From Stegostoma tigrinum (taxonomy: Eukaryota): a stretch of 64,000 nt of DNA. Shown piece after piece: positions 14,291 to 63,680 of this stretch. Each line of letters starts with the position of its first letter. The first letter of the stretch is position 1. The stretch covers positions 22,630,001-22,694,000 of the forward strand of contig NC_081377.1 in the NCBI RefSeq assembly GCF_030684315.1, written 5' to 3'. The position numbers and the translations under genes are program-made. Under the pieces are notes generated by a model, which was not told the DNA's origin, searched no databases, and saw nothing but the letters and a program-made list of their open reading frames with translations.

Positions 14291-15918
14291 ATAGAGATAA
14301 TGGGAACTGCAGATGCTGGAGAATCCAAGATAACAAAGTGTGAAGCTGGATGAACACAGCAGGCCAAGCAGCATCTCAGGAGCACAAAAGCTGACATTTC
14401 GGGCCTAGACCCTTCATCAGAGAGGGGGATGGGGAGGGGGTTCTGAAATAAATAGGGAGGGGGAGGCGGACCGAAGATGGATAGAGGATGGATAGGTCAG
14501 TCCGGGGAGGACAGACAGATCAAGGAGGCGGGATGAGGTTAGTAGGTGGGAAATTGAGGTGCGGCTTGAGGTGGGAGGAGGGGATAGGTGAGAGGAAGAA
14601 CAGGTTAGGGAGGCGGGGATGAGCTGGGCTAGTTTTGGGATGCAGTGGGGGGAGGGAGATTTTGAATCTTGTTAAGTCCACATTGATACCATTGGGATGC
14701 AGGGTTCCCAAGCGGAATATGAGTTGCTGTTCCTGCAACCTTCGGGTGGCATCATTGTGGCACTGCAGGAGGCCCAGGATGGACATGTCATCTAAAGAAT
14801 GGGAGGGGGAGTTAAAATGGTTCATGACTAGGAGGTGCAGTTGTTTATTGCGAACCGAGCAGAGGTGTTCTGCAAAGCGGTCCCCAAGCCTCCGCTTGGT
14901 TTCCCCAATGTAGAGGTAGCCACAACGAGTACAGTGGATACAGTATACCACATTGGCAGATGTGCAGGTGAACATCTGCTTGATATGGAAAGTCATCTTG
15001 GGGCCTCGGATGGGGGTGAGGGAGGTGGTGTGGGGGCAAGTGTAGCACTTCCTGCGGTTGCAGGGGAAGGTGCCGAGTGAGTTGGAGGTCAGTGTGGAGC
15101 GGATAAGGGAGTCGCGGAGAGAGTGGTCTCTCCAGAAGGCAGACAAGGGTGGGGATGGAAAAATGTCTTGGGTGGTGGGCTCGGATTGTAGATGGCGGAA
15201 GTGTCGGAGGATGATGCATTGTATCCGGAGGTTGGTGGGGTGGTATGCGAGGATAATGGGGATTCTCTTTAGGCTGTTATTGCGGGGGCGAGGTGTGAGG
15301 GATGTGTTGCGGGAAATGTGGGAGACACGGTCGAGGGTGTTCTCGACAACTGCAGGGGGGATGTTGTGGTCCTTGAAGAACGCGGACATCTGGGATGTGC
15401 GGAAGTGGAATGCCTCATCCTGGGAGCAGATGCGGCGGAGGCAAAGGAATTGGGAATAGGGGATGGAACTTTTGCAGGAGGGTGGGTTGGAGGAGGTGTA
15501 TTCTAGGTAGCTGTGGGAGTCAGTGGGCTTGAAATGGACATCAGTTTCTAGCTGGTTGCCTGAGATGGAGACAGAGAGGTCCAGGAAGGTGAGGGATGTG
15601 TTGGAGATGCAGGTGAACTTGGAGGTTGGGGTGGAAGGTGTTGGTGAAGTGGATGAACTGTTCGAGCTCCTCTTGGGAGCAAGAGGCGGCGCCGATACAG
15701 TTGTCAATGTAACAGAGGAAGAGGTGGGGTTCGGGGCCAGTGTAGGTGCGGAAGAGGGACTGTTCCACGTAACCTACAAAGAGGCAGGCATAGCTCGGGC
15801 CCATGCGGGTACCCATGGCCACCCCCTTTGTCTGTAGGAAGTGGGAGAAATCGGAAGAAGTTACTCATCCTCACCCTCAACAACGTCTCTTTTGATTCCT
15901 CCCACTTCCTACAAACCA
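14291..15918 (-). mobile_element. 5'-truncated Penelope-like retroelement (RT C-terminal half + GIY-YIG endonuclease), frameshifted
   Basis: AMGTRMGPSYACLF and CYIDN (degenerate YxDD) RT motifs; LTFLDL, FKPTDSHSYL; NVVYCIHC..CGYLYIGETKRRLGDRFAEH GIY-YIG; 3' terminal repeat with hammerhead core at 14393-14420. Confidence 0.93.
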
Positions 15919-17854
15919 CCAAGCCACTGTGCCACTGCAGTGGATTATTTCAGACCACAACATGAGAAGCAGCACTGTGCCATTTGGTCCATCAACAGAT
16001 TGTGGCTGATTTGATAAACCTCAACTCCACTTTCCTATCTTTTCCCTTTAACCCTTGATTCCCTCATTTAAAAAAAAACCATCTGCTTCTCTCAGCCAAT
16101 TAACAGATTATAGATTTTATGCCAGCAATAATTTAATTTGTGAAAGCACAAAAATGTAGTAAAATAAGCTGTAACATGAGGAAATTACTTTCAGTTTTGT
16201 TTTTCTCGACAATGTTCTTCAACAGAAGCAGTGTACATGTTCTTTTACTGAACTTTACGTTCAACATTTAAATAATAGTTTCAGACTTATTTTCTGTTTA
16301 GATGAATTAGAAATGACATTTAGACAATTTAGATTGAAAATACTTTACTCAAGTCTTATAATAATGTAAAAGAAAAGACAGATCGACACATATATACTAC
16401 CTAATCACATAAAAAGATTCCAAAATGTTTAAAATAAAGTTCATCAATGGAACACCAGAAATGGACCTAAAGGAATAACACCTTTGCCCCACTACAAACA
16501 CAGAGTGAGGTCAAGTGTGGACGTCAGTGCAACAGAGTCATGACATATGTACACGAAAGACCCTTTAAAATTAAAAAAAAGGGCAAAAACCTACAAATAT
16601 CATATCTGAGTTTCACTGCCACTGATTTCCAGACATCAATTTCCAAATTGAGCAAGCAAATGTTTCAAATCACATATCTAGCCATTTTTGCTCCTTCTGG
16701 AAACATTTTCTCAGTAGCCCAGGAAAGACATACAGCAACGGCATTTCTGCTGCAAACTGTAATATTGCTGCCCTTTACAAATCCATTTTTTCCACCACTG
16801 GATTGGACACTTTGTGCCATTGCAGACTGTTATGCAGGACAGTCAGTGCTCCAAGATGAAGTTGCAAAAGATAATGAAAGGCATAAGCATTAGTTCAAAT
16901 CATTTTTGGGGGTCAGTGGATGGAAAGGATATCTTATCTATGCAGGGAAACAAAAAACAGATCTACCAGCTGTGAAACCGTTGCACAGAAAATGAGATGT
17001 CAAAATGGTACTTTAATGGATCCAATTCTAAATGAAGTTAAAGAGTCTTACTGCCAATTCCAATTTAAGCTTTTTTTAGATTTTTCTATTCTTGTCCAAA
17101 TTCGTCTGATTTTCATTCAGTACGATGTAAAGGTGGTTAGATACTGAAATTCTGCCTTAGCTATGTGGCTTAAAACTGAAACTTGGAAGCCCATCTCCTC
17201 CCCACAGCATCAGCATATAATTTCTTTAAAGTACTGTATTCAAACTGACAATTTTGATCTGGATAAGTTCTACCACATCCTAGGATTTCTATGATGTGGT
17301 CTCTTTCCCATTAAGAACTGGATTAAAATTATATAAACTAATTTTATTTAGAACCAGCTGAGCTAAGACCGGAAGTGGACGTTTTCTTTTCAATAACTTG
17401 GATTATTAGTCAACGACGCAGCTGTACAATTAACCGATAAGCTATTTCTATGTGTAAAAATCATACATTACTTCTTGCATTTCTGATTTAGAACTGTCAA
17501 AACCCTTTTTTAAAAAATTGTACGATACTGATTATGAAATATCTTCTGGAAGTGGGCCGTATTTTAGCACTTCTCAACCAAAGTTGAAAATGCATGAGTG
17601 CAGCAGATAATGAGGGCAGGAGAGGTGCAGTTGCTGCACCTCCTAAATTAAAGCCAGTTTTTAAAAACAACTGGGCAGTCAAATTTAACCAGCTAATGAC
17701 AAACGCTGCAACACCTAAAATTAAATAAAATGTTAATTATTTTTTAAAAATCTTCACCAGCATTTTGCCTGGAAATACAGCCATATGCCAAGCCTCTTCA
17801 AATCACTGCACTGGTGGCTTTCCTCGGCCAGTTTGCATCGAGGTTGGTTTGTCA

Positions 17855-18288
17855 TTAATTTTGAGAAAGACAGTGCTCCAAAGCTGCCATTCCATACAGG
17901 TTGGCTTTATCCTCACCAATATTTAACATAATGTCTTTACATGGTTTGCTGTTCTTGGCCAGTTCTGTTAAAACACTCTGAAAGGCAGCAACGAGGTCAA
18001 ACTCCACGGTCACAGGTGAACTCTTATTTAACAAAACAAAAATGTCTCTCAACCACTCTGATTCAATTACACTTTGTGGTAGCCATGGTAGCAAAGGTAC
18101 ACAACTAACAAAAGCCTGCATTCCCAGAAACCAAAGCTCTGAGATTTGATCCCAAGCTTCTTGGTATCTCTCAGTCACCACAATCTGTGTTTGGTCATCA
18201 ATTCTGTTTAGCTGCGTTGTATGTGCTTTTGACAAAAAGTGAATTGCCCCTCGGAAAAAGCCCTTGGATACTGTAGTTCCCTGTAACA
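17855..18288 (-). CDS. NCDN: Neurochondrin last coding exon
   Basis: T-tract cag| acceptor (phase 1). VLQGTTVSKGFF...YQEAWDQISELWFLGMQAFVSCVPLLPWL...ANLYGMAALEHCLSQN then stop; neurochondrin C-terminus. Confidence 0.95.
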
Positions 18289-18989
18289 CTGAAAAAAAAA
18301 ATGCACAGTTACTCCCAAAAGACAAATCCAGGCTGGTTACAAATTCAACTTCAATGCAAAATTCAAGATTGACAAACTCTTGATCTCCAAAACTAAATAA
18401 TATACATTTACCTGTCTCAGTTTCCTCCTCTTCTCTGATCCTTGGTATTTTTTCTGTCATTTTTAAACCGCTTGTAAATTCAGCCTAGGTTCCAAACTCT
18501 CACTTAATCCATCTCCTCCATGAAACCCATTTCCTTCACAACTGATTCTAGTTACACCATGTATTTTAAATCATTTGCCTTCCACTGTCGCACTATTACT
18601 CTAGCAAAGACCTTCCCTCCTGCCCTTGCACAAGGCCCACTGCTATCACCAGCACAATATGTAAATTTAGATCAACCTGGTTATTCTCTGCTCTAGCACT
18701 GCATTAGTAAAAGAGACACAATGCTTTAATGTTCTACAAGTTTCCCTTTTCTAAGTACTGTAAATAATGCCAGTTGTACATGATAGATATTTTTAAATCA
18801 ATCTGTTCAGAGAGTTATGACATGTACAGTAGAGGTATGTCTTGAACCCAGACCTTATTGCCCAGAGGCAGCAACACTTCAACTGCATCACAAAAGCCCC
18901 TGGTTTTGCATTATATGTAGTGTTTGAGGCTGCTCGACAATGATGAGGTGGGGATTAGGGTGCTGAGTTAATGATTTCCTGTTCCATAC

Positions 18990-19132
18990 CTGGTGTGTCA
19001 GCAAGTATGCGACTCATCATCAGCCCCAAAGCTGTGAAATTAGCAGCAAGAATCAGGTGAAGCTGGTTACAAAGCAAGGACTGCAAGGATTCCATTAACA
19101 AGCTAAGTAAAGATGAGAAACATTCTTCCTGC
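18990..19132 (-). CDS. NCDN: Neurochondrin coding exon 5
   Basis: 143 nt, QEECFSSLLSLLMESLQSLL...LILAANFTALGLMMSRIL; gcag| acceptor, CAG|GTATGG donor, phases 2/1. Confidence 0.92.
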
Positions 19133-19922
19133 CTGCAATGACATTAAAAAAAAGACAAGTGTAAGAAATAATTTTAAGAAGTTGCAATAAAAGCCTTCAA
19201 AAAGAAAATCCGTTTGTCCACAAATATAACAGGTCAGACCAAAATTCACCGTGAAATCCATTCAATGACACAATTGTTTGAATTACCCTTTCAGATTCTT
19301 TAGTTGCAAGAAAAATCAATAAGTTAACAGCCTGTGATCAGCTGGGCAACTGTAAATGCGGACACTGAATATTACATACAGAAAAAGTGTCTGACGCTTG
19401 AGTGAGCTTCAAAATCATTAACTCTTGCCCTCTGGTACCTCAACAGATTGACTGAGGGAGTGGTCAAATCATACAGCCAAGGAACGACTAAGGATTGGTC
19501 CTTAATCTCAAGCTCCGACAGCAATAGGGATATTATAACTGACCAAATTGGAAACAGTAAGACAAAAAAATTGCAGTCCTAGTGTTGTTACTGCTATAAT
19601 AACTTCTGCTGGAAATGCACAGGGGGTAAGATCAGGGTAACTCAATTACTAAGTAGTTATGGTAAAAGACCAGTAACATTATCATTCCACCATAGCAAAG
19701 AAGTTAACTCAACAAAATCTCTTCTGAGTAAGTACCAGACAAAAACAAACTGTTCATCATAAAGGCTGTCAGCTTCTGGCAGGAATCTGCTAGTCTTAAC
19801 TGCTCGGACCTACACATGGATGCAGTCCAATACTAATAATTGCTTTTGAGAGGAATCCGGCCATCTCACTGATTCTCCATATTATACTGTGAACCTCATA
19901 ACTGAGATAAGGTATTGTATAC

Positions 19923-20147
19923 CTGATCAGTGCAGGCTCTGTTACCACAAGGTTTAGAAAAATTCCACAAGCTGTTCGAAGACTCATCTCTGCATTATCT
20001 GGCAAAACTGATGCATTTTTGGAAGAACTGAAGACTTCCCACTGTTGTGTGAAATAACGAAGAAGCAAAACATGAAATCCATCCGAAATTAAGATGGTCC
20101 TAGGTACATCCTCAGCTGAAAGGTGACAAAATCCAGGCAACAGAAAT
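19923..20147 (-). CDS. NCDN: Neurochondrin coding exon 4
   Basis: 225 nt, FLLPGFCHLSAEDVPRTILI...SLRTACGIFLNLVVTEPALI; phases 2/2. Confidence 0.95.
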
Positions 20148-20539
20148 CTATAAGCAAATACATATAATTACCAAAACACTGAGTGCACACAAGTGATAAG
20201 AGACAAGTTGTTTCCTATAAATCCTAACCAACTAAGGAAGGTGTTTGTACTCACTAATGATTAAAGTGTACAGCTGCACCTCTCAGTTAAATTTTCATCC
20301 TGGTTAATTTGTCAGCCAGAATATCATGAACATAAGAAATAAACATTAACAATGACTGAAAGCCAAAAAATGAGATCATTCCTTAGTCTGGAAAGCACAT
20401 TTGGCAACATAATTTTTGACAATATTTTTCTGAGCTCCATACCAGCTTGCATGACCAAAAAGCACACCTCCAAAATAAAGAAATGTGGAATGGAAAGTAC
20501 CGAGGAGGCACAGTAAGCCAGCAGCTATTAAATAAAAAC

Positions 20540-20830
20540 ACCGAATGCGGGCATCACTGGACAGGCCAGCATTTATTATGCATCCTTTATTAAGCATCCT
20601 TTATTGCCCAGAGAGGAGTTAAGTGTCAACCACATTGCTTTACGTCTGGAGAAATGGTAGGCCAGACCAGGTCAAGATTGCAGTCTCCTTCCCTAAAATA
20701 CTTCAGTGATAATTTAATAGGTTTGTCTGTGAGAATCAAGGACAGTTTAACCAATTGCAACTGTAATTTATCTCAATGGTAAAGAATTTCATATCTTCTG
20801 ACCAATTTAGTGTTTGACCACGGTGAAATA
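20540..20830 (-). mobile_element. Older copy of the same SINE family
   Basis: GGCCAGCATTTATT...GTCAACCACATTGC...GTAGGCCAGACCAGG. Confidence 0.65.
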
Positions 20831-20952
20831 CGAGTACAACACTGACCAAAGACAAGCTCTGTCTCACCTGGTGAGATATGACTAAAATATTGCACAAGGT
20901 TAGTGATCATTAGATGGACTACATTCAATGCTGCATCATATTTTCCTCTTAC

Positions 20953-21194
20953 CTCAAGGCATCTTTAGGCCACATTGTTACCTCAGGGCTGTCAGCCAAT
21001 GATAGCCCTTTTACTTGATTGTTTAGGTCATCAGATTTTATTGGACATTCAAACAGCTTCCGAGCATAACAAATCAGAAAAGGCAGCACGTCACAGATTT
21101 CCTGTCTGAGTGCGTGAGTTTCTTCAGCTATCCAAGCACCCAGGATTCGGACTGATGCATACAGAAATGGATCCCATAGCTGTTCCTCTGTAAC
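20953..21194 (-). CDS. NCDN: Neurochondrin coding exon 3
   Basis: 242 nt, VTEEQLWDPFLYASVRILGAWIAEETHALRQEICDVLPFL...KDALR; tag| acceptor, AG|GTAAGA donor. Not in the ORF track. Confidence 0.95.
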
Positions 21195-22465
21195 CTATAG
21201 CAGAGGAAGTAAACAAGTGTAAACTGAAGCAAATAAATTTATTTTGTATATGGCATAAATATCTTTAAGAATGCCATGGTGAAAGGACCAGAGGGCACAC
21301 TAATTTTTTTTCCATGTTACAGCTGAGGTACAAAGTTTCAAAGTATAATATTGCAAGAGAGGGGGTCTGGTTGACGCCAACAGTGCTGAATTTTTGAAAA
21401 AAAAATGTCTGAATCCTTGTTTCTCAAAAGCATGGATAAACAGACTCACGTAACGAAGCACCGCTGAATCTTGAATCCTAAAAGAAATATATTTTTTCTT
21501 GTTCTAAGGGAATGAATTTGGGGAGAATATTCAAATACAATTACAAGGTCTGCATTTCGATATAAAAATTGGCAGCAAACCACTGTCTGTCCGCACCACC
21601 ATACTCATCTGATGGAAATTCTGTTTCCCACCGGCACTTACTACGTACTGTTCTCGGTTATCGTCTTTCGACCAATTCAAGAGTTTGACTGCAAGTCAAC
21701 TGGACTGTCCCAAATGAATTTGTGGCAACCATTTCTGCACTCCAACAGGAAGTTACTAAATACAATAGTGTGGCTGCTAAGAAGCTTCCTCACCCATTCC
21801 AATCTTGCTGAGGTCAAGAACTTAAAAGCTGGACAGTATGTGCAATCACAGTCGCAGTGTGCGACAGCCTGATAGCACATTAATTCTTACCAATTCGAAC
21901 AGCAGGAAAAATTTATACAATACAACATACATCTATAGATTGAGAAAAAAAATACCTAAAGGGCTCTTGTGAAGTGGTAGTGCACTCATCTCTGAACCAG
22001 AAGGTCAGCGTTCAAGTCCCACCAGCTCGAGAGGTGTGTAATTAACAATGCTTTAACAGATTGTGAATATTTTGTAAACAGTCTTCTGAACCATTGGTTA
22101 TTTTCACAAACATATATGATTACTTTCATCCCTTCTATCAGCTCTAAGCTTTTCATTGTGAACAACATTTAACAAGCTGGTTTCATTATTGTTTTGCCTT
22201 CAACAATATTTCCAGAACATCGGGACTGCAGCATTATCCAAAAAGCCATAACCTGCAGGACTATGAATCAAATTTTAAAAAGGAAGATTAGTTGGTCTTT
22301 CACCTGGAGCACACATGATGGGTGAGGAGCCTCTTTCTGTTCTGGAAAACTCCTACGATTCAATGTCTACAGTAGAAGTTTCACAGAAAATTCAGACAGA
22401 AATGGAGTTACAAGAAATTACAGTTAGGCAAATTACTCTAAAGGTAAACATATTTCCATAATTAC

Positions 22466-25005: not shown

Positions 25006-25131
25006 CAGTAGAAGAGCTGCAAACTGCTCGCTATCATTTTTTGCATCTTGTAGGACCTGAAGACATCGACCCAATGTCTTGTTCCTAGCCAAATCTTTAG
25101 TTCCACATTGATTTTCTGAATTTGATGCCAT
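25006..25131 (-). CDS. NCDN: Neurochondrin first coding exon (exon starts 25145, ATG 25131)
   Basis: MASNSENQCG...LQDAKNDSEQFAALLL, the NCDN N-terminal signature; CTG|GTAAGA donor, phase 0. Confidence 0.95.
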
Positions 25132-27516: not shown

Positions 27517-27679
27517 AAAAACTGAAAGAACTGCAGATGCTGTAAATCAGTAACAAAAACACAGTTGCTTGAAAAGCTCAGCAGGTCAGAGAAAGGGTCA
27601 CTGGACCTGAAACATTAAATCTTTTTTCCTTCACAGATATGCCTTACCTGCTGAGCTTTTCCAGCAACTTTGTATTTGT
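27517..27679. mobile_element. Palindromic short Penelope-terminus element (related subfamily)
   Basis: AGTTGCTTGAAAAGCTCAGCAGGT ... ACCTGCTGAGCTTTTCCAGCAACT arms; GAACTGCAGATGCTG family motif; TCTTRTGACTGTGT direct repeats. Confidence 0.75.
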
Positions 27680-29040: not shown

Positions 29041-29175
29041 ATAGATAACAAGGTGAAGAGCTGGCTGAGCACGGCAGGCCAAGCAAGGTCTAGGCCCCTC
29101 TGATGCTGCTTGTGTTCATCCAGCTCTACACCTTGTTATCTCAGATTCTCCAACATCGGCAGTTCCTCTCTCCCA
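29041..29175. mobile_element. Palindromic short Penelope-terminus element in the promoter
   Basis: GATAACAAGGTGAAGAGCTGG ... CCAGCTCTACACCTTGTTATC inverted arms; flanked by AGCAACTGTCG direct repeat. Confidence 0.8.
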
Positions 29176-34602: not shown

Positions 34603-34747
34603 AGAGATAATGGGAACTGCAGATGCTGAAGAATCCAAGATAACAAAATGTGGGGCTGGATGAACACAGCAGGCCAAGCAGCATCTTTGGAGCACAAAAG
34701 CTGATGTTTCAGGCCTAGACCGTTCATCAGAAAAATTCTTTTTCTGA
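34603..34747 (-). mobile_element. Short Penelope-terminus element with hammerhead core and fold-back stub
   Basis: Near-identical to 14293-14420; ends CATCAGAAAAA-TTC-TTTTTCTGATG. Confidence 0.85.
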
Positions 34748-34909
34748 TGCAAGAGTTCCAACTGCCAGTCTGTTACCTTTCATTTGCACTGTAAATGTAT
34801 TCAGATTCTTTATGATCAGAGCCAATTTTAAACATTGTTCATTTGCGCAGCTGATTTCCAAGCTTTGTCAATCGTCATACATTGCAGAGACTGCACATAT
34901 GAAGTGTAG

Positions 34910-47717: not shown

Positions 47718-47800
47718 CAGCAAGAACTGCAGATGCTGGAGTCAGAGTTAACACGGTGTGGAGCTGGAGGAACACAGGTTAGGCAGCATCCGAGCAGTAG
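47718..47800 (-). mobile_element. Penelope-terminus fragment
   Basis: CAAGAACTGCAGATGCTGGAG...GGAGCTGGAGGAACACAG, similar to 60751-60810. Confidence 0.65.
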
Positions 47801-50800
47801 GGAATTTCTGCCTGTTTGTACTGCTTCCCTAGAGATTGTAACTTCGCAAAATTCCTCCCTCTGTCCACCTGCTAGTTCACAGCTTGTACTGGAATGTTTT
47901 TTTCTGATTAACCTATTCGATCATTCTCCTCTTTTTTTTATTTTCTGACATCGTCTGATTTATGTTTACACGATTAAATGCTTTTTGTTTAAGTTTCATG
48001 TTTTCGTTTTTGGACAATCATGGATGATGGGCCATCTGTTGAATGTGAATGTTTTCTTTATAATGGGAATGTACTCACTTTTCTTTTGATCCAACTTCTA
48101 AACTTCTCACTTAAGCTACCTCAGCTTCCATGCCCACATCATTGCCCTTACTTAAGTGGAAGGTTGTAGTCTTAGAGCTGCTCTTCTCCTGCTTTTGCCT
48201 CGAGGTGCCTTTACTCTGAGTTCACTAACTTCATGGTGACCATGTGCAAGGCAGGTGAGGCTTAAATTCTGTTTGAATTTTGAGGGAGCAGGATCTGAAA
48301 AGTTGCCTGGTTTCAAGCTTGTTGTGGAGTCCACAGGGAGATTCAGTGTTTTATTGCAAAATAATCATCTGAATTTAATTGAATGTGTTGAAGATCTGAA
48401 TAAAGAGCTGGGCATCCACAGTCAATTAATGGTAAATGCAAGATTTACCTTTGAATTGCTGGTTAGTGTAGCAAATAAGTCGCCTGTGATCTCAGTTCGA
48501 TCGATATCATAGTTTTGTAATTTCATGCTTTTCACAACATTGCTACAATTCTGCCTGTCCTTGCAACTTTGGTAAATTTGGCTATGTGGTTTTATGCCAA
48601 ATGGTAGTCCATCGTTCTGGACCCACTTATTGTGTGTAACTGTGATTGTGATGGTACAATGAAGTTATTGCCACTGTAGCCCAAAAGCAAAGAACTGATG
48701 TCTACTCATGTCTGGTGTTTATGTCTTAGGAATGGCTGTGAGTCAGGACTAATGGGCTCAATCAGGTTGAGTAAAGAGTTGAAATTTACGTCAGTTCCAG
48801 GAGCCTGAAAATATATCCGCATTTGTCTTTCCTGATTTCCACTCTCCACTTGTCCTGCTTGCCACCCCTTTATCTTATTGCCTCACTCCTTTGCCATTTT
48901 GCCTGACCCCTTCTTCGCCAGTCCTCTCATGGACAGAGTCGGTGAGAGGAAAGTGTGAATAGAAGAGGTAGTAGCAAGCAGGAGGGCCAAATAGCAAGCA
49001 ATGAGCAGGAATGTTGAGGGAGGAAATCAGCATATGGAAGGCTTGGGAAAGAATTTTAAAAAGAAACAGCAAGCAGGATGGAGCACTGTTAGGGGAGAGA
49101 ACTAGCAAGCAGGAATGAGGTGATGAGGTCAGGGATGGAAGGGGCACATCATGAAGTGGCATTTGAGAGGTTCAAAGAAGGAAGTGACGAGTCAGATAGC
49201 GAACAGGAGTCAAAATTAAAGAATTGATGTTGCTGAGTTAGTAAGAGAGATTCTGGTCTGTTTATTACTGCTGATTTAGTCATTCAGCAACCAGTTAGTA
49301 GAATTATTGAAGAAAAATTGATCTCAAAGACTTTGGACACATTAGAAACAAAAGACTTGGTAAGGGGATTATGAAAAGTTTTGGAGTTCTCGTCCAGATC
49401 TCCAAAGAGCCTCAGAAACCTATTTTGTTTTCTTGTGCAACATTTTAAACTGTGGATATTTCAAAATCAAGGGTCAGAATAATTTATTTTTGAGGGCTTC
49501 TTTTTGGTTTTAAGAGGCTCCATTTTCATTCTCACTGACTTTTTAAAATTAAATTATCAAATAGTATCACTTGCTGTATTAGGGTTGAACTTTTTGTTTT
49601 CGGTTTTCTTCTTCAAGTTAGGAGAGCACAATTATCAAATATTCTAGCGTACAGCCATCTTTATGGATTCCAAGTTAAAAGATTTACTTGTTATAAATCA
49701 CCCAGTCTCTCATCCCCAACCCTTTACCACAACTACAGCACAGATTCTGACATGTCCCTGTTCCCAAACCCCAAAGAAACGTGAGAGAAGGAGGTTTATT
49801 GCAATGAGAATAACTGTGGTTAGGAAAGGTAGTTGTTGTGTGATGAAATCCTGCATGCAGTTTTCAAGCTCACTAGCCTTTATGTGCCAAAAACACGAGA
49901 CACAACAAATGCTGGTTTCAACTGGGTCTGCTGACGTGGCAAAAATCAAAGTAACATTCGATGGAATTGCATGAGATGACTTCACTTGACCAACCAGCAT
50001 AACTATTCATGACATGAATAAATTGCTGAGCTGTTTTCCTCTTGACTCGTAACAGCTTTATGTAAAGAAAGCATTAAATTGATTGACAAGCATAGAAGTT
50101 GCAATTTCCGCATTTTCCAGCAATTAAAAACGCAAACCTCCTTGGCTATTTCTATTTTGAATCTGTCAAATTGAAACAAAAGTTGTTTTGACTTTAACCA
50201 TCGCCACCAATTTAAGTTTACTGTGGAATACTTAATGCAAGACAAAATCAAAATAATGTTTTTTTTAAAATTATTTTAATGAAGCGGTTTCAGGACTGCA
50301 CACGAAGCTAGAAGTCCACTTCAAATGCCGCCATAGTAACTTTAAAATTGAATTCTGGTGATTTGTGGTTTAGCCTATTACCATGTCAATGGTTAGGGAT
50401 AGTGTTCTCGCTCTTTTTACAAATCTATGATAAGTTTTTAAAATATCTGTTTTTATTTTTCGACTTGTGGTACAGATCTGCACATTGCCTTGATATTGAT
50501 GCAGACAAGACACAGGATTCTGTGTATGGATGGAAAACATGGAGAAAATGTAAATCTCTCCCAGATTTAGTTGGGTGCTGCTGTTCTTTGTACATCAGAT
50601 TTTGCATAATTCCTTCCTGTGTTTGCTAACTATGTTCCCATCCCATCTGGTTAGCTTCTGGTGTTTATCTCACTGTCTGCATCGAACGTTAAAAGTAATT
50701 GGAATACTGTCCAGTCAAAGTAAATATTTCTAAAACATAGAGAGCCCAACTTAAATTTTGAAGAGGCATTGTTTCAACCCTTCTCCAATTGGCAATGAAT

Positions 50801-51115
50801 TAACATTCAAATTGACATTCTAATCTTTTGCAAAAAAAAAGGAAGCTGACGTATTAACTCTCAAACTCGTTGAACAGGATATTGTGTTTAATTTTGCTCA
50901 GGTAATTCATGCAGCCGGAGAGAAACTTTGGGCAGTCCTAAGCCAGTTTTTAATGGGTATCAGTGTGTCTGCGATATTGCAAAGTGGCAATTAGGTCAGA
51001 AGTTTTGGCCTGGTGCAGTATGGAAAGCTGTAGTGCTTGGAACAGACTCTGAAAATTCAGACAAATTGTGTTGTGCATGATCTTGAATTTCTGATAAGTA
51101 CAATTTAAATTGCTG

Positions 51116-51241
51116 TCTGATGGGTCTAGGTCCGAAACGTCAGCTTTTGTGTTCCTGAGATGCTGCTTGGCCTGCTGTGTTCATCCAGCCTCACATTTTA
51201 TTATCTTGGATTCTCCAGCATCTGCAGTTCCCATTATCTCT
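51116..51241 (+). mobile_element. Short Penelope-terminus element (hammerhead box damaged)
   Basis: Reverse complement of the 14293-14420 / 52729-52819 terminus; CTGATG-GGTCTAGGTCC-GAAACGTC lacks 2 nt after CTGATG. Confidence 0.85.
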
Positions 51242-52728: not shown

Positions 52729-53745
52729 ATAATAAAATGTGAGGCTGGATGAACACAGCAGGCCAAGCAGCATCTCAGGAGCACAAAAGCTGACGTTTCG
52801 GGCCTAGACCCTTCATCAGAGAGGGGGATGGGGGGAGGGAACTGGAATAAATAGGGAGAGAGGGGGAGGCGGACCGAAGATGGAGAGTAAAGAAGATAGG
52901 TGGAGAGGGTGTAGGTGGGGAGGTAGGGAGGGGATAGGTCAGTCCAGGGAAGACGGACAGGTCAAGGAGGTGGGATGAGGTTAGTAGGTAGCGGGGGGTG
53001 CGGCTTGGGGTGGGAGGAAGGGATGGGTGAGAGGAAGAACCGGTTAGGGAGGCAGAGACAGGTTGGACTGGTTTTGGGATGCAGTGGGTGGGGGGGAAGA
53101 GCTGGGCTGGTTGTGTGGTGCAGTGGGGGGAGGGGATGAACTGGGCTGGTTTAGGGATGCAGTAGGGGAAGGGGAGATTTTGAAACTGGTGAAGTCCACA
53201 TTGATACCATATGGCTGCAGGGTTCCCAGGCGGAATATGAGTTGCTGTTCCTGCAACCTTCGGGTGGCATCATTGTGGCAGTGCAGGAGGCCCATGATGG
53301 ACATGTCATCAAGAGAATGGGAGGGGGAGTGGAAATGGTTTGCGACTGGGAGGTGCAGTTGTTTGTTGCGAACTGAGCGGAGGTGTTCTGCAAAGCGGTC
53401 CCCAAGCCTCCGCTTGGTTTCCCCAATGTAGAGGAAGCCGCACCGGGTACAGTGGATGCAGTATACCACATTGGCAGATGTGCAGGTGAACCTCTGCTTA
53501 ATGTGGAATGTCATCTTGGGGCCTGGGATGGGGGTGAGGGAGGAGGTGTGGGGACAAGTGTAGCATTTCCTGCGGTTGCAGGGGAAGGTGCCGGGTGTGG
53601 TGGGGTTGGAGGGCAGTGTGGAGCGAACAAGGGAATCACGGAGAGAGTGGTCTCTCCGGAAAGCAGACAGGGGAGGGGATGGAAAAATGTCTTGGGTGGT
53701 GGGGTCGGATTGTAAATGGCGGAAGTGTCGGAGGATAATGCGTTG
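52729..53745 (-). mobile_element. 5'-truncated Penelope-like element (GIY-YIG part + 3' terminus) with 11-bp TSD
   Basis: Same family as 14291-15918; GFLYIGETKRRLGDRFAEH; flanked by TAGAGGGCATG at 52718-52728 and 53746-53756. Confidence 0.93.
52792..52819 (-). ncRNA. Minimal type I hammerhead ribozyme motif in Penelope terminus
   Basis: Minus strand reads CTGATGA-A-GGG-TCTAGG-CCC-GAAAC-GTC: both conserved boxes, stem II, palindromic ACGT in place of stem III, GUC cleavage triplet. Stem I is only about 2 bp. Activity untested. Confidence 0.65.
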
Positions 53746-54399
53746 TAGAGGGCATGTTCTGTGCTTGAAGAGCTAAATTAAAACTAACCTCTGAAAATGT
53801 GATTACATTGAGCTAGCAGTCAGCTATTGGCCGCCTTTTACCCAAGACAAGGGTCATCAATAAGATTTATTAGGCCATCTTTTTATTAAAAACAAATTCC
53901 CCAAAACACACTATTGAGAGTTGCAAGGCACAAATGATTAGAGACAAAAACGTCCACGTGGTCATTGAGAATCTAAAGGCGATGCAGCAGTTTTGCTTTA
54001 TTTGCTTTAAAACTGTCTTTGTGTTTTTATGACGGAACTATGGAGAAAAAGCAGAAAATGTGAAATACTCAGGAAACAGCTATGGAATTGTAGAGTTAAT
54101 GATCAGAATTTTACAGGGGCAGGGGATGGCAGACTGCTCACAGGCCCAGAAGGACACCGAACAGCAGCTAATCGAGTGAAAAGCAAGTACAGACCTGCAA
54201 TGTGTTGTGGGTGGCTGGCTTAACTGGTAAAGAATGGAACTTGTGTCACTCGGAGAAGAAGTCCTACTCTCAGATTGGCTGGAAGTCCCAGCAGAGCCAA
54301 GACCGTGGTAGTGGTGGGTGCAGCTGGACTTTCAAGAAGTAGCACTAAGAAAGCTCAATGGATCCTTGGAGTGAGCTAAGTTCAGGGCATAGAGTCTGG

Positions 54400-55167: not shown

Positions 55168-55270
55168 TCTGATGAAAGGTCATCAATGAGAAATGTTAAC
55201 TCTCTTTCTCTCCACATATTTGTGCATGACCTGTTTGAGCATTTCCAAAATGTTTAATCTTTCAGATTTA
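55168..55270 (+). mobile_element. Old Penelope-terminus element with decayed hammerhead
   Basis: CTGATGA-AAGGTCATCAATGA-GAAATGTTAAC followed by sequence resembling the right arm of 27517-27679. Confidence 0.55.
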
Positions 55271-56414
55271 TATTGAATGTATTGCTCAATAAAGCATCTT
55301 TAAAACCAACTTTTAAGAAACTTAAGAGTTATGACTGTTAATTCCGTTGATAAAACACTGCTTCCAACTGCTCATTTGGAATAATTTATCTCAACTAAAA
55401 TCAAAACAATAATGATCACCACCATAAAATGTGTTTTTCATGCTAACAGGGTTATGTATGACACTTGTTACCATTATGAGCAACGTGAGGAATTTTCCAG
55501 TAAAGCTTGATGATTAAACTTGTTTAATTTTACTGTGATGCAGAACAATTGCTGTTGTAGAATGAGATTTTGATTCTATCTCCGAACATTCTGTTTTATC
55601 TTTCGTTGTAAATCTCAGTGGGTGCAGTGCCTGAGGCAGATTACTCTCTGCAATGATTTTTGGAGGAAAGCAGGGTGACTGCCTAGCCCACGGTGGGCAG
55701 GGGAGGGGATTGATGAAAGTTAGCGTGGTGCCATGAGACTTCCCATTTAGTTTCCAGTGAGCTCACTTCAGGGATCCATTGAGCCGCCTTAGTGCTGCTT
55801 CTTGCAGGTCCAGCTGCAGGTCTTGGCTACTAAGGTCTTGGCTCTGCTGGGACTGCCACTGTCTCATCCAGAGCCAATCATATTATGCAGCCCCTTCACC
55901 CTGTAGCCTTTCAATTCTTCCTTTGATTCTGTAAACAAAGGCCTGAGTCTTTAATTTTACCTTTGCTATGGTTACCATTCACCACTGTCTCTTGTGTAGT
56001 CCCCTCTGACCTGTATGTAATTATTCCAAGTTAAAATATTTTTAATGCTGATCAACCATGATCAGTGCCGTATTGCCAATATTTTGAAGTCCACCTTCCC
56101 GACTTCAAAGCAAACTGGAAACTAAATGGGAAGCCTCATGGCAGCATGATAACTTCCATCACTCCCCTCCCCTGCCCACTATGTGCTAGGCAGTAACCCT
56201 GTTTCCCTCCAAAAATCATTGTGGCAGATGTGGAGAAGACATGTTTTAAAGCAACCTGAATTATTGTTCATAGTATTTACTAAAAAAAACTTGAGAATCT
56301 CTAGAAATGCATGAACTTTATATAAAATGGAACAGAAATATAACTGAGTTTACAGAAAATTGGGATATTTCACTTTTCACTAATAATGTGTTTCTCCCTG
56401 TGTTGTCTAACTAG

Positions 56415-57118
56415 GTGCAAGCATGGACAACTGCAAGACAGTAGGAAGCCATAGTGGGGTGTTTGTGCAAGTTGGACTGGAAAGCCCATTTTTGGAACAA
56501 GTGGGGAAAGCGGATTCCATTCACACTTGTAGAAATGCCTGCTGTCAGAAATGCCACTGCAATGCTGCATGGCTGTTGGAGGGGAAATGTCATCTTTTAG
56601 ACTGTAGGCTGCAAGAAAACTGTCAGCTAAACCAAACAGGCAGATCAAACTCCATTCTAATATTTATTGATAGACTTTCCCCTTGTGGGGATATGCACAG
56701 TCTTATGCACAGAATTTTAAAAGAAGATTTTCATTACAAAATTGAGGCTAGGACTTCAGATCAGACCACAATTGATAGAACATCAACTAAAGGCACGTTG
56801 TCTGGATATTCATTGGTAGCAAAGCAAAATAAAATATTGTCCAGAATAAGACGTGAGGTATCTAAACCATTTAGTAATCCTGCAAAGTTGCTGCAAAGTA
56901 ATGGTGGTACTCCCTATGATGGCAACAAGGATTTAAATCCATCCGGGCACACAGAACAGAAAAACAAGAAGCATTTAAAACAGCGTTCATACCAAGATCT
57001 GCAGACCCCTCAAAACAGCCTTAAGGAAAATGATACTGTGAATGATCAGTTTCCGAAATATTCAGCACCTACTTCAAATGGGAGAAACTTAAAGGAGATA
57101 CAGACTCTACCTCCTGAG
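56415..57118 (+). CDS. KIAA0319L: KIAA0319L second coding exon, MANEC/MANSC cysteine-rich domain plus linker
   Basis: ctag| acceptor phase 1. CRNACCQKCHCNAAWLLEGKCHLLDC...C...SNSILIFI fits the MANEC pattern; GAG|GTAACA donor phase 0. Confidence 0.92.
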
Positions 57119-57309
57119 GTAACACTTCATTTTCTTTTTTCTTTACAAACATTTCTTGCTGAACTGATACTTAAATAAATGTGATACCAGCAGAAATCTT
57201 TTCCTCCCAATCTTGATAAGTCAATGTATGCTTGATTCCAATGTGTGGTTTACTTTGGAAAGCTGTTCGTGTTCAGCAAGTTGGTGGCACTCCATCTTGA
57301 TGCATCCGT

Positions 57310-58335: not shown

Positions 58336-59167
58336 GAGAATCATTGATTTTTGTTTTAAACATAGCATATTCTCACTGAACACATTGGAATTAATGGAGC
58401 TTCGTTCATTCGCCATAATGGGGTAGCTCACTGTCAGTCGCCTTGGACCTATATATTTCTTTAGAACCAGTGTCGTGTTGGAAGAGGTTTTGGAGGCTGC
58501 TTTAATGAGTAGTAGTAATAATTTGGTATAATTATCAAAGTGTACAATACCATTTCCCATTAATCTTCCCATTAATCTGAACTTCTGATCAAAAATCAGA
58601 GTCATGATCTGTGCATTTCTCTTGCATTTTGGAAAAATGCAAAACCTCCAAGAAGTGCCGTATCTTCAGTTGGTTAAATTATTTACTGCTGTGTTGAAGT
58701 TACCATTGTAAATGCTAGAAACTGAGGCAAGTGTAATTATCATCTGGTCTTGGTGTTCAGTACCAAATTTTGAATGTATGCCGTGACATGGTCTTCAACC
58801 ACCCGGTCAAGTTAAACATTCTTTCATACCACGCCAATATATTTGAAGCTAATAAAGTAAAGTTTTCAGAGGACATTTTAAAAATCTCTAATAGATTTTT
58901 TTTCTCCCTGATTGAGTACCAACTATGTGCCTAGAGTAGAAGCGTTGAGACAATCCTGGATGGTTGACAATCTTATAATGAATATGTGGCCCATACACAC
59001 TGGCATTACTGCTGTACTGGCCACTTAATCTTGTCACTTAGATATAAGATGGAGAGAGGAGGTGAGTTGTAGTTAGACTATTCCGCTTTTTATCACTTTT
59101 TAAGCCCTTTTTTAAACTTCAGTTTCAAGCATGTAAGGTGACACAGCAAATTAAAATACACAAGAAT

Positions 59168-59260
59168 CTGAAGAAGGGTCCCAACCTGAAACGTCAAGCT
59201 TTCCTGCTCTTCTGATGCTGCTTGGCCTGCTGTGTTCATCCAGCTTCACACCGTGTTATC
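59168..59260 (+). mobile_element. Short Penelope-terminus element with hammerhead core
   Basis: CTGAAGA-AGGGTCCCAACCT-GAAACGTC followed by family sequence GATGCTGCTTGGCCTGCTGTGTTCATCCAGC; AAGAAT on both flanks. Confidence 0.8.
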
Positions 59261-60314
59261 TAAGAATTTTTTTTTTGGCACGTTCTCCAAGTGCAGTTAT
59301 TCTTCAAATTTAGTGGCAACATATGCTACATTCTGAATAAATTTTCAATGTTTTTAGCATCAAGTGGTGTGGCTACACTAAGCATACTTTAGTGTTGGAC
59401 TTTTTCAAAAGCTATTAAACCTCCTCATAAAGGAAGATGAAGTTCCACTCGTGTTATTCTCTTATTTTGTTGCTTAATGCTTTGTGGTTGGAGTATTATT
59501 CAGGCTTTTTTTTCTAACTTGCAAAATAAATCCTTTTGAAGTTACAAGGTAAATTGGTAAATTTGTTTCTTAAGCTATCCTGCATAAAATGTGCTGAATA
59601 TAACATTGAATTCATGGAGAAATTATTTGAAATAACTGCATAGTGTGGTACTTCCATTAGCAGGGCTTGGATAGGGATGATGTAGTCAGTGGACTAAGTA
59701 ATACCTAGCTCATCCGTATGAGACTGTAATCCACCCTGGTTGTTTCAGTCATCTTTAAAGCCATAAAGGAATGCTTCATGAACAACAGCAAAGTACCAAG
59801 ATGGAATTATAGCCTTGAAGGGAACAAGTAATGTAGGGGTTAGGAGGGGTTCTCGGACAGTTTTTGGTTTGTAAGGCACCGCCACTGACTAGCAATGCAG
59901 TGGCTATATGTGGCTAGCACTGTGGATATTGTGCTGTAATGTGTTCCAGGAATTACATGAATTCTGCCTGGAAACCATCAGACAATAACTGTCCTTTGTG
60001 TTGTTGTGACCTGGGGCCTGGGGTGGGTAAGGTACATCAGGGCCTAATAACCTCGGGCTCTGTGGGCTTACTGTGCTTGGGTAAGGGATCAAGCAGAGAC
60101 CTGTACCAAGATTAGCATGAGGGCTTATGATTTCTGACCTTGCCCCTGGTGGTTACAATATAGTGAGTTGCAAATGATTCATAGTGCTGAGCAGAGGATT
60201 CATTTTTGTGAACTAGTTATTGACACTTTATCTTAAATTACATAAAGGTTTGCTGTTTGGAGTTATTGAGTATTAGTGATAAAATAAAACTACTGAATGG
60301 AAACTGAAATAATC

Positions 60315-61540
60315 TGTTATGAGATTGTATACAGTATTCATGACTTGGAGGGCAGGAAGTAAGAATTTGTTGGTTAAAAATGATAGTGGGGAAAAATGTG
60401 TATCGTCCCTTTAAAAGGTGATGTTTTCTCTGTGATCAGGAATTTTTAACAAGTATGTCTGTGAGCAGCAGCTGGAGGGTGCCATTACAGAAAGTACCCA
60501 AAATTGAAACATTTATATAAAAGGTCAAGCACCGTCTTTTTTGGCCAGGACAACTGTTCTAAATGTTAACCAATCGATTTGAACCAAGCTCTCTGCTACA
60601 AAAAACCAATTGAATTTAAAGCTGATGGTTTTGGCAGCCTGCAACAAATTGTATTGGAAGAAATGGATGTGTCATCAGTGGGGGAGGGAATCATATATAA
60701 AGATGAGGGCATTTGGAAAATCAGGGAGAGCTAGCTGTCGTCTGAGGGGACAAGAACTGCAGATGCTAGAGTCCAAGAAACACAGTTTGGAGCTGGAGGA
60801 ACACAGCGGGCCAGGCAGCATCAGAGGAGCAAGAAAACTGACGTTTCAGGTCGGGGCCCTTCTTCAGAAAATGTTCTTCTGAAGCTGCTGGGACTGCTGT
60901 GTTCCACCAGCTCCAAACTATGTTGCCATCTGAGGAGAGAGCTTGCCCACCATTTGAGAAATAAGCCCGAGCGCGCTCAGGAAATCGGTAAGCTCTTTAA
61001 AAATGTACCGTCTTAATAAAAAGTACCTTGGTACTTTTCGCTTAGGGTCCTCATAGAAGAAATTACGGAGAAGACATCCCTGACAGCAAAATCAGCAGAG
61101 GAACGTGTTTGTGGAGTAATAGAAAAGCCAGAGCGTTCCTGAAGACCATCTGTGTGGACTTGGAGAGATTACATTTTAATTTATTGTAGTCTTATTAATT
61201 GGGTTTATTTAAGTGGGACTTGTGTTTATTTGAACAATATCGCAGTAGAATTTAGTTCAGTTAGTGGGTGGTTAATAGCCTAAGGGGGAATTGTTCGGTT
61301 TGTTAGTAATTCTGTTAATTTGTTAATTGTTAGAGTTAAATAAATAAATTGTTCCTTGTTATGTATAAAGTGAATCAGGGATTTTCTTTCTTTGGACTAT
61401 TCTTTTAACAGATTACGAGGGGAAAGGCAAGCTTTTCGGGGGTAATTCTTTGAAGGTAACCCCTAGCTCCATCATAGCAGATATGGTGTTGTTTTTTGGT
61501 TTAATTATCGGGAGGGTTTGGCCATTCCCCCTCCTTAACA
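60315..61540 (+). mobile_element. Possible solo LTR
   Basis: TGTTA...TAACA termini, CCAAT motifs near 60570 and 60606, TATATAA near 60694, AATAAA near 61339. No clear TSD and left boundary uncertain. Confidence 0.35.
60751..60921. mobile_element. Palindromic short Penelope-terminus element
   Basis: AGTTTGGAGCTGGAGGAACACAGC ... GCTGTGTTCCACCAGCTCCAAACT inverted arms; hammerhead core on minus strand 60840-60867; degenerate 17-bp direct repeats on the flanks. Confidence 0.8.
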
Positions 61541-62406
61541 TTTGGAAGAAAAATGTATTTCAATCAGTGAAAAATTGTGAGAAAATATTTCTGTTAAACG
61601 GTCAAACTTCAAGTTTGTATTTAAACATTCGTGATGGCTTGTATTTTGTTATTTAACCTAGATAGAGCTAATAAATGTGAGAAGTTTTAATTTAATGCAT
61701 ATTGTTTATTTGCCATGTTGATTCAGTCGATTTACCTAGTGAGTATTGAGACAGAGCAGATGGCTGACGTGGTCACACTATAACTTTTATGCCAATTTTA
61801 GCGTAATTCACTTTGATTATTGCAGTGCTTTGGTTTAGCTTCTCCAGTCCTGAGTTCGGAGGATGAAAATCAGCCAGCTTTCTTGTTCTTGCTTTCCATC
61901 CAGCCTACATAAATTTGCTTAGTTTGAGGTAGGGGGCCGAATGTTCTTTGTTCTGACTGTGGTGTCCTTTTGTATTTCAAGCCAATGTACACGAAACTGC
62001 ACTCTAAATTGCCTGGTGTCTCAAATGTTTTTCAATTTGTAATCTATTTGATTTCCTCCTTTATATGGAATATTTGACCGTGTTCAAATGGTTGTATAAA
62101 TTAGACTTATAACCATGAGACTATTATATTACATATTAAATCTGATATTACTGATTAATATGCCACATGTTACTTCTGTTTAAAAGCAAGGTAGACTCAT
62201 GTTTGTATATCTATTAATCTTTTTCAACACTAATGTTCCTGAAGCTGTATTTTTGTATGAATAGTTTCAAAGCTTAATTTTATAAATCGGTATTAAGTAT
62301 GTTTCCATTATTTGAAAGTTCACCTAAAAAGCATGAGAAAAATCAGATTTTAGTTTTGCCAAAAGATGTCTAATTGAAGTGTTAATTTTCTCACCAATTT
62401 GTTCAG

Positions 62407-62671
62407 GTCCCTGAAGGAACCTCTTTGCCAAACACTGCCTCTTTAGTTGTTCCTCCTAATTCCAATGTGTCAAGTCCATCAGTCAGTCAGAAATGGATGC
62501 AGGTGAATGCAACAAACATCAGTATAGCTGAGACACTGCTCGTTACCACTCTTCCAACTCCGCTCCTGAGCATGTTACCAGCACAAGTGAAAACTACAGC
62601 AATGGAACAAGATGTAACTCCTCCTCCTACATCCAACACTACAAGTGCAACTAGTGTCGCAGGAAAACCAG
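62407..62671 (+). CDS. KIAA0319L: KIAA0319L third coding exon, Ser/Thr/Pro-rich stalk (gene continues beyond window)
   Basis: ttcag| acceptor phase 0, 265 nt open S/T/P-rich frame VPEGTSLPNT...TSVAGKP, CAG|GTGAGC donor phase 1. Confidence 0.8.
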
Positions 62672-62875
62672 GTGAGCTAATTCAGTGCTTGAGTTCCCCT
62701 GGCTTAACAGTCATATCAATATTCATTATTTCATTTCAGTGATAGATGAGCCCAACAGAAATAAATATCACACAACATTGATTCCTCCTCAATTAATGAG
62801 TCAGAAGGCTGAGTGCAAAGTTCAAAATCAAACCTTTGTCTTTCTGCTGAGGTAACAGAAGTTACTCTGATACAG

Positions 62876-63222
62876 GGAGGCGATGGCCTAGTGGTATTAT
62901 TGCTGGACTGTTAATCTGGAGGTCCAGACAATGTTCTGGAGACCTGGGTTCAAATCCCGTCATGGCAGATGGTGGAACTTGAATTCAATAAATAGCTGGA
63001 ATTAAGAGACTAATGATGACTGTGAATCCATTGTTGATTGTTGGAAAAACCCGTCTGGTTCACTAATGCCCTTAAGGGAAGAAAACTGCCAACCTTACCT
63101 GGTCTGGCCTACATGTGACTCCAGACCCACAGCAATGTGGTTGACTCTGAACTACCTACTGGGCAATTAGGGATGGGCAATAAATGCTGCCGCGCCAGCA
63201 ACACCCTCATCCCGTGAATGAG
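62876..63222 (+). mobile_element. tRNA-derived SINE with LINE-derived tail
   Basis: TGGCCTAGTGG A box, GGTTCAAATCC B box; tail GGGCAATAAATGCTG similar to the 3' end of the LINE at 4075-5275. Confidence 0.85.
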
Positions 63223-63593
63223 TAAGGGATACTTGTACCATCCCCGAATGCATGTGCCACCTTGTAGTTTTTGCCCTCTAGATTTTAAACAGGCAAGAAT
63301 TGGGTACATCCTGCTCTGCTGGAGTTATCTGCTCAAGAAAATTATTGTCGTGATTTGAAGGTGAAAATAAACTTTTCTGCATCCCTCATGTTGAAGCTAT
63401 GATCTTATGAATTAGGAGCAGAAGAAGGTCTTTTGAGTCTGCTCCACCATTTAATAAGATCATAGATGATTGATTTGTGTTTTGAATTCCGCTTTCCTAT
63501 CTGTCCCCAATTTCCTTTGACTCCTTTTGAGACAAGCTTTTTTCATCATCTTTTCTAGGGAAGAAGGAAAAGATTAGTTTATCAGAGAGAAAG

Positions 63594-63680
63594 AAAGGGT
63601 CTAGGCCCGAAACGTCAGCTTTTGTGCTCCTGAGATGCTGCTTGGCCTGCTGTGTTCATCCAGCTTCACACTTTGTTATC
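63594..63680 (+). mobile_element. Short Penelope-terminus element truncated inside the hammerhead
   Basis: AAGGGTCTAGGCCCGAAACGTCAGC...TTTGTTATC, near-identical to the reverse complement of 14328-14414; CTGATGA box missing. Confidence 0.85.

Follow-up and report, generated by a model that had tools for sequence, protein, structure and literature searches.

Short hammerhead-bearing insertions in a 64-kb window of the Stegostoma tigrinum genome as probable by-products of Neptune-type Penelope-like elements

The stretch of DNA analyzed here, hereafter the window, comprises 64,000 nucleotides of the shark Stegostoma tigrinum (contig NC_081377.1, positions 22,630,001 to 22,694,000) and carries, in addition to exons of host genes, a dispersed family of short repeats that correspond to the 3' ends of Penelope-like elements (PLEs) and contain minimal type I hammerhead ribozyme cores, mostly in broken form. 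The neurochondrin exons are located on the minus strand (17855-23473) and those of a KIAA0319-like gene at 38200-38343, 56417-57121 and 62404-62670 (99-100% match to a named Stegostoma tigrinum protein), a placement that makes most of the repeat copies intronic. Expansion of PLEs in introns is noted in the accessible part of a whale-shark preprint (10.1101/443036). The orientation of the core sense strand relative to the host gene showed no bias in the window (4 sense, 3 antisense). The copy number and the end distributions reported below are those of this window.

All 11 repeat positions listed in a first-pass annotation of this DNA (14293, 27517, 29041, 34603, 47718, 51116, 52729, 55168, 59168, 60751 and 63594) were confirmed (Table 1). 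With an nhmmer model built from seven copies, 13 arms in the window scored E<1e-3, none of them outside the loci already listed; five weak matches with E>1.8 were discarded. The weakest copy, at 55168, reached E=0.84 with this model and E=0.009-0.03 with the 27590 copy as the query; it retains the CUGAUGA start and the GAAA-N-GUU end. The copies are about 90-180 bases long and amount to approximately one insertion per 5-6 kb, in agreement with the density of one copy per 6 kb estimated previously. Two of them terminate PLEs with open reading frames (ORFs) and nine stand alone. Not all copies are single units: three or four are head-to-head doubles, and the set divides into three sub-lineages (A, B and C). 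When the short-range inverted repeats of the window are ranked by length, five of the top six are, or probably are, members of the set of PLE ends, and the Rfam microRNA matches in the window are inverted doubles. A hairpin at 5400-5562 is absent from the earlier list; its junction lies inside the hammerhead, it has no similarity to sub-lineages A-C, and it is probably a head-to-head double of a fourth, putatively PLE-derived family (D). The hairpin adjoins an (AC)12 microsatellite (5375-5398). Throughout, +1 denotes the U before CUGA, with the predicted hammerhead cut after +29.

Table 1. PLE-derived insertions and hammerhead cores in the window (positions counted from its first nucleotide; RT, reverse transcriptase)
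Feature	Position	Strand	Structure	Flanking repeat or target duplication
Head-to-head double, family D (probable)	5400..5562	.	stem-II-like hairpin, then GAAACGU(C/A), in both arms (5433-5493 and 5502-5562)	
PLE1, 5'-truncated Neptune-type	14293..15916	-	RT end, thumb, CX4CxxC linker, GIY-YIG; frameshifted; long 3' end (+129)	target duplication not found
PLE1 hammerhead core	14393..14420	-	sub-lineage A; stem I 2 bp; stem III palindrome disrupted by C15.2U, a CpG decay change	
PLE1 short inverted arm at 5' junction	15830-15858 with 15888-15916			
Head-to-head double, sub-lineage C	27517..27679	.	long-tailed minus arm; plus arm with degenerate core, from about +1 to the short end	target duplication, 14 bp, 1 mismatch
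Head-to-head double, A/B-like	29041..29171	.	minus arm with short end; plus arm from +8, internal deletions, long tail; no core	target duplication, 15 bp, 1 mismatch
Stand-alone sub-lineage A copy	34603..34749	-	+1 to +129; short palindromic fold-back at 5' junction; core with three changes	
Sub-lineage B-like copy	47718..47803	-	about +34 to long end; no hammerhead core	
Stand-alone sub-lineage A copy	51113..51241	+	-3/+1 to +129; 3-nt deletion removes G8/A9	flanking repeat, 10 bp, 1 mismatch
PLE2, 5'-truncated Neptune-type	52729..53745	-	GIY-YIG preceded by linker; 3' end of the short class (about +93)	perfect 11-bp target duplication, 52718-52728 / 53746-53756
PLE2 hammerhead core	52792..52819	-	sole fully intact core (1/9); stem I 2 bp; preceded by C-rich tract	
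Old sub-lineage C copy	55168..55262	+	from +1; stem II and palindrome decayed	target duplication not found
Stand-alone sub-lineage B copy	59167..59261	+	+1 to +94; stem I 1 bp; intact strict core with a G10.1-U11.1 wobble	abutting repeat, 6 bp, P=0.08
Head-to-head double, sub-lineage B	60751..60928	.	long-ended minus arm from +1; short-ended plus arm from about +36	target duplication, 10 bp, 1 mismatch
60751 minus-arm core	60840-60867	-	G10.1-U11.1, stem I 2 bp	
Young stand-alone sub-lineage A copy	63594..63681	+	+7/8 to +94; no CUGAUG	target duplication, 11 bp, 1 mismatch, overlaps 3' end of copy

The two copies previously described as termini of RT/GIY-YIG elements indeed form the 3' ends of elements with such ORFs. 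PLE1 and PLE2 are 90% identical over 623 nt; the GIY-YIG domain (Pfam) is detected in the two ORFs at E values of 3e-4 and 5e-4, just under the curated cut-off, the RT motif region shares 82% identity with a Chiloscyllium protein over 76 aa, and 31 full-length RT/GIY-YIG relatives were identified at E<=1e-20. Upstream of GIY-YIG, both ORFs encode a CX4CxxC linker. According to the accessible sections of Craig 2021 (PMC8557442), a CX2-5CxxC linker marks Neptune and Nematis and is missing from Poseidon; judging from their predicted proteins, PLE1 and PLE2 are endonuclease-bearing (EN+) Neptune-type elements, which the linker assigns to the Neptune/Nematis group. No further PLE body or 3' untranslated region upstream of +1 was matched elsewhere in the window. 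At 53064-53175, a 39-nt tandem repeat (2.9 copies) lengthens the C-terminus of the PLE2 ORF relative to PLE1. A C-rich tract is located just upstream of the hammerhead in both elements (14421-14470 and 52820-52870), with five G runs on the cDNA strand; its sense strand, a polypyrimidine stretch with CAG, resembles a 3' splice site, and both a 3' splice site and a G-quadruplex were considered for this tract.

Pairwise identity over +8 to +93 (62-99% overall) separates sub-lineage A (five copies, 89-99%) from B (two scored) and C (two copies, 62-73% to the others). The short copy at 63594 is nearest to the PLE1 end (85/86 identical positions) and that at 51116 to the PLE2 end (82/84). A tree that holds the three short A copies together was rejected by the approximately unbiased (AU) test (p-AU 0.036), and the free tree contains no strongly supported branch; the short A copies thus seem, weakly, to intermix with the ORF-linked copies. 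No sequence private to the short copies was found in the window: they consist of the PLE terminus.

Both ends of the short copies appear non-random. In the multiple sequence alignment of 14 arms, seven 3' ends lie at about +90-97 and seven at +118-129, with none in the interval +98 to +117, so that the two classes, about 30 nt apart, differ by an optional 'tail'. As described in the accessible parts of PMC8557442 and PMC3846280, PLEs carry an optional tail of 30-40 bp at one end only, and in the anole Poseidon element two internal start sites of reverse transcription match two 3' ends (PMC11167929, in the sections available). In all three scorable head-to-head doubles (27517, 29041 and 60751), one long arm is combined with one short arm, a pairing that is suggestive, with a chance expectation of 1 in 8. 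Flanking duplications of 10-15 bp are present at P<0.01 in 6 of the 12 insertions, with one more borderline case.

At the 5' side, the main arm starts at +1 in the copies at 34603, 55168, 59167 and 60751, at -3/+1 in 51116 and probably at +1 in 27590; the remaining main arms start at +7/8 (63594 and 29086) and at about +34 (47718). Thus, five or six of the nine short copies begin within about 4 nt of the hammerhead base, and for at least 5 of 11 ends to fall within 5 nt, geometric models give a probability of 0.001-0.008 and a uniform model one of 0.003. The lengths of the short copies are accordingly not random in the manner of simple 5' truncation, as the first-pass annotation had anticipated. 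The +1 edge is set independently by an abutting repeat at 59167 and by an inverted junction at 34731 and 60868. None of the copies ends, on either side, at the hammerhead cleavage site. The shared start at the hammerhead edge suggests either the true 5' end of the RNA or a fixed stop for reverse transcription. The palindromic 5' junctions at 34727-34749 and 60861-60883 contain 3-4 extra T before +1 that are missing from the ORF-linked copies; these could represent untemplated A on the cDNA, followed by fold-back.

The minimal-hammerhead pattern with a pairing stem II occurs four times in the window, compared to a mean of 0.105 (maximum 2) in 200 first-order resamples; the Rfam hammerhead families yielded no match in the window at E<=5. 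The three cores quoted in the first-pass annotation, 52792-52819(-), 59168-59195(+) and 60840-60867(-), read exactly as given, and these are the 3 of the 9 core-bearing arms in which the strict core (CUGANGA/GAAA, NUH, palindromic 15.2-16.2) is intact. The other six are decayed or cut, and the strict core is combined with G10.1-C11.1 in one case only, the ORF-linked 52792. The single change near the cleavage triplet that had been ascribed to the 34703 core turned out to be three core or stem changes (G16.2A, G10.1C and C11.1U). Stem II, which had been described as staying paired, does pair in 39 of 45 cells, but two-sided changes were found in 0 of 5 pairs, the covariation score is under the shuffle mean, and the closing pair G10.1-C11.1 is G-C in only 4 of the 9 arms. 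CpG transitions are present at 8 of the 18 core CpG sites. The pre-set comparison of the core with its flanks gave a divided outcome: between A and B the core is conserved (2/32 mismatches, both CpG, vs 33/156 in the rest; p=0.049), whereas within A it is not better conserved than the remaining sequence (6/75 vs 13/388), and in the old C copies it is not conserved (10/32 vs 56/156). This pattern fits a core that is under selection while in the source elements and that, once inserted, drifts neutrally and loses its CpG sites.

Stem I comprises 0-2 bp in all eight window cores scored because the stubs start at its first base and because lineage A has 2 bp even when ORF-linked. A scan of prokaryotic genomes produced four loci (L001-L004), none of which resembles the window DNA: L001 (CBDDTI010000263.1, 1501-1528) is a well-formed minimal hammerhead with a stem I of 5 bp, L002 and L004 lack stem I, and L003 (CBDDTI010000588.1, 1501-2453) is a related ORF-linked, eukaryotic-type Neptune-like PLE end with a stem I of 4 bp. 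The L001 and L003 contigs, which belong to a bacterial metagenome-assembled genome, are probably eukaryotic contamination of the assembly.

The intact core alone is predicted to fold into an off-state hairpin, CUGAUG with CGUCAG (-11.4 kcal/mol), and the predicted value for a hand-built half-dimer is -9.4, compared with -22.8 for two monomers. No conserved stable fold of the whole element was detected (z of -0.2 to 0.9 in 8 of 9 folds and -2.8 for 55168), and loop-loop contacts are missing from the window cores. Folding or cutting of the hammerhead in the inserted stubs appears unlikely. In the anole element, according to the accessible sections of PMC11167929, the hammerhead needs protein in order to cut, and insertion in vitro does not depend on it. 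A kissing-loop arrangement was considered and rejected: the strong predicted homodimer (-38 kcal/mol) is the trivial extended duplex of the hairpin, and the palindromic stem II loop is lost in B and C.

The ends, duplications, relationships and decay described above can be read directly from the DNA, and the explanation that we favor, with a probability of roughly 0.6, is that autonomous Neptune-type PLEs gave rise to the short copies as dead-on-arrival by-products, which the RT/GIY-YIG protein of these elements would have built from uncleaved RNA. What is inferred is how priming takes place, by analogy to the anole Poseidon protein, and why the copies have their edge at +1. After a staggered nick of the target by the enzyme, reverse transcription would begin within uncleaved RNA, at one or the other of two sites separated by about 30 nt. 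The resulting cDNA would stop at +1 if synthesis had begun at the start site in its 5' copy and run off the 5' end of the RNA; alternatively, it would be blocked by the C-rich tract just upstream, two causes that are not separable here. The doubles would most likely form when an opposite-strand nick primes a second cDNA and the two cDNAs join head to head; an inverted 5' junction is also present in PLE1. The hammerhead would be maintained in the source elements and be a passenger in the stubs, carried along only because of its location, with the RNA end on one side and the sites where reverse transcription starts on the other. The anole study, in the parts available, reports unprocessed RNA as the main template, normal insertion by hammerhead mutants, and nicking and extension of both target strands (PMC11167929). 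The PLE origin of the repeats, their minimal type I hammerhead core and their mobilization by the PLE enzyme, all proposed in the first-pass annotation, are supported.

Several points weigh against this explanation. The analysis covers a single 64-kb window, and the counts are small. The window contains no full-length copy from which the start of the 5' pseudo-long terminal repeat (pLTR) or of the transcript could be read. It also contains no ORF-linked copy of B, C or D, so that these could derive from non-autonomous masters. The biochemistry invoked is that of a Poseidon-clade element, whereas the window element is Neptune-type. The arms of the doubles diverge by about 10-20%; 5 of the 12 insertions have no flanking duplication, 6 of the 12 have no convincing one, and the element edges were fixed partly after viewing the flanks. 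The end-clustering test was post hoc, with P=0.02-0.07 if four copies are counted, and the AU result depends on 2-3 diagnostic sites.

The view that competes most directly with by-products of autonomous PLEs is the one proposed in the first-pass annotation, namely, a non-autonomous, ribozyme-bearing family on the scale of a short interspersed nuclear element (SINE), with short masters of its own that have their own transcription and depend on the PLE enzyme, acting in trans, for mobilization. Fixed ends on both sides together with target duplications are compatible with such a family, as is the ratio of nine short to two ORF-bearing insertions, B and C being without an ORF-linked partner in the window; furthermore, the available portions of the respective papers describe non-autonomous PLEs in Chlamydomonas (PMC8557442) and pLTRs that are enough in trans in a rotifer (PMC3846280). 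Given, however, that the short A copies probably do not form a clade, that the short copies contain no sequence of their own, that the B box is absent from all 10 elements by the pattern applied (with loose A-box matches in 5 of the 10), that the window has no tRNA gene and no Rfam 5S or 7SL match, and that the core is fully intact in only one of nine arms, a family of this kind appears unlikely. The repeats are a new instance of a known phenomenon, notable for a 5' edge at the hammerhead that many copies have in common and for doubles that combine a long with a short arm; a separate class of ribozyme-bearing SINEs is not supported. Head-to-tail repetition, which would be expected of monomers of non-LTR retrozymes (a unit RNA cut by two hammerheads, circularized and re-inserted), is missing as well: none of the 14 tandem-repeat rows of the window is such an array, the doubles are head-to-head, no circular permutation was found, the ends are off the cut site, and stem I and the loop-loop contacts are lacking. 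Retrozymes are related to pLTRs and have dispersed 'solo' monomers in vertebrates including one chondrichthyan, according to the accessible text of 10.64898/2026.07.22.740005, but with the window copies built in this manner we consider that origin highly improbable.

Two further possibilities concern the way in which PLE copies become short, and we regard each as rather improbable. Full-length pLTR-ORF-pLTR elements, with or without an inverted 5' pLTR, could have lost the ORF by direct-repeat recombination, which predicts a single unit or a one-tailed head-to-head double within one target duplication; solo pLTRs are mentioned in a rotifer, with recombination or deletion proposed (PMC3846280, sections available). 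This route requires many full-length precursors, of which the window holds none, both ORF-bearing copies being 5'-truncated without a 5' pLTR; moreover, the available homology extends over only about 95 bp, and the 63594 copy, nearly identical to the PLE1 end, is young. Under plain random 5' truncation, the common start would be a small-sample or alignment effect. Heavy 5' truncation is known for PLE insertions (PMC8557442 and PMC8969392, in the parts accessible), the second arms and 47718 start at +34 to +55, and for B and C there is no upstream sequence to compare; the clustering of starts near the hammerhead base, the independent setting of the edge at 59167, 34731 and 60868, and the absence from the window of any copy with a length between 131 and 1000 nt are all at odds with this scenario.

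Several features of the window copies have been described before. Cervera and de la Pena 2014 (PMC4209133) reported minimal hammerheads that occur as single motifs, dispersed in their thousands through a genome and 'probably related to truncated PLEs'. As documented in the available parts of that paper, metazoan PLE hammerheads share with the window copies the core, the bulged base after A9, G10.1-C11.1, the palindromic 15.2-16.2 and the lack of stem III, and they include close opposite-strand pairs and a motif in fish Neptune elements; their stem I measures 4-5 bp, or 2 bp in the case of D. virilis, whereas that of the window copies has at most 2 bp, and in those parts the ends of single copies are not mapped and no cartilaginous fish is named. 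The Neptune-clade EN+ PLEs, in the accessible sections of Craig 2021 (PMC8557442) and Arkhipova 2013 (PMC3846280), resemble the window elements in the C-terminal GIY-YIG with the linker, 5' truncation, inverted head-to-head pLTRs, the one-end optional tail, duplications of 8-10 bp and solo pLTRs, but differ in that the window insertions mostly consist of the final 90-130 nt only, with a common 5' edge. Poseidon_Ac of Anolis (Frangieh 2024, PMC11167929, as far as available) similarly has a hammerhead about 100 nt upstream of two 3' ends, an uncleaved RNA template and priming of both strands in vitro; it belongs to another clade, and its ORF starts at stem II, whereas the short element matched the N-terminus of 0 of 180 PLE proteins, a weak negative given that full-length shark ORFs are scarce among these.

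Non-LTR retrozymes (Cervera 2020, PMC7229834; Li 2026, 10.64898/2026.07.22.740005) are, in the accessible text, likewise short, non-coding, pLTR-related elements with type I hammerheads and dispersed monomers, and Li et al. derive vertebrate retrozymes and solo monomers from pLTRs; unlike the window copies, they are defined by head-to-tail repeats, at least two intact ribozymes and circular RNA. The SINE-like Sm-alpha and Sj-alpha elements of schistosomes (PMC6765202, PMC6155905, parts available) are also short dispersed repeats with a type I hammerhead, but there a promoter is followed by a canonical active ribozyme, whereas the window copies have neither a B box nor a tRNA head. An internal promoter, with a transcript that begins in the upstream pLTR, is described in PMC2377424 (accessible portion). 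We found no literature on this shark family or on a common 5' edge at the hammerhead in a survey with thin coverage of subscription papers and without Repbase and Dfam; the family may already be catalogued in one of these two databases or in the supplementary files that accompany the 2026 retrozyme preprint.

The available sections of PMC8557442 and PMC11167929 describe as unresolved the way in which PLEs form their pLTRs, tails and inverted ends. Dense minimal insertions with sharp ends would allow steps of the PLE reaction to be read statistically from a single genome, namely, the RNA start site, whether or not cleaved RNA is copied, and the long-with-short pairing in doubles. Counts of 'ribozyme' motifs in such genomes would mostly tally truncated, decaying stubs. 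A more far-reaching version of the by-product explanation, which we put forward tentatively and with considerable doubt, is that the stubs form a genome-wide fossil record of the Penelope reaction, with +1 as the true 5' end of the template RNA, so that each transcript, copied from its own 5' start site, would yield a fixed-length mini-element without a separate master. The doubles would then come from a protein dimer that holds two RNAs and primes both strands at two start sites, and the same complex would let two minimal hammerheads pair via their ACGU palindromes. If this is the case and the local density holds, a shark genome would contain on the order of 10^5 copies (an extrapolation from one window), that is, a SINE-scale repeat made without a SINE.

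A CpG island is located near 28.5-31 kb in the window, and the PLE double at 29041-29171 sits in it, between the 5' ends of the divergent neurochondrin and KIAA0319-like genes, where it might affect a shared promoter. At 7890-7965 (+), a match to Rfam SNORD36 (31.9 bits vs the gathering score of 30, E 0.38) probably arises by chance; it lies near or within a coding region on the opposite strand that we take to be claspin-like, for which no Pfam family was found. Other dispersed repeats, with 70-78% identity, connect 12578-13070 with 36397-36885, and 20580-20697 and 32165-32364 with 63004-63212; these are unrelated to the PLE ends. Yet another repeat, at 54280-54377, 55651-55858 and 56109-56221, comprises an inverted pair of 113 nt, separated by 345 nt, together with a third copy that is only partial.

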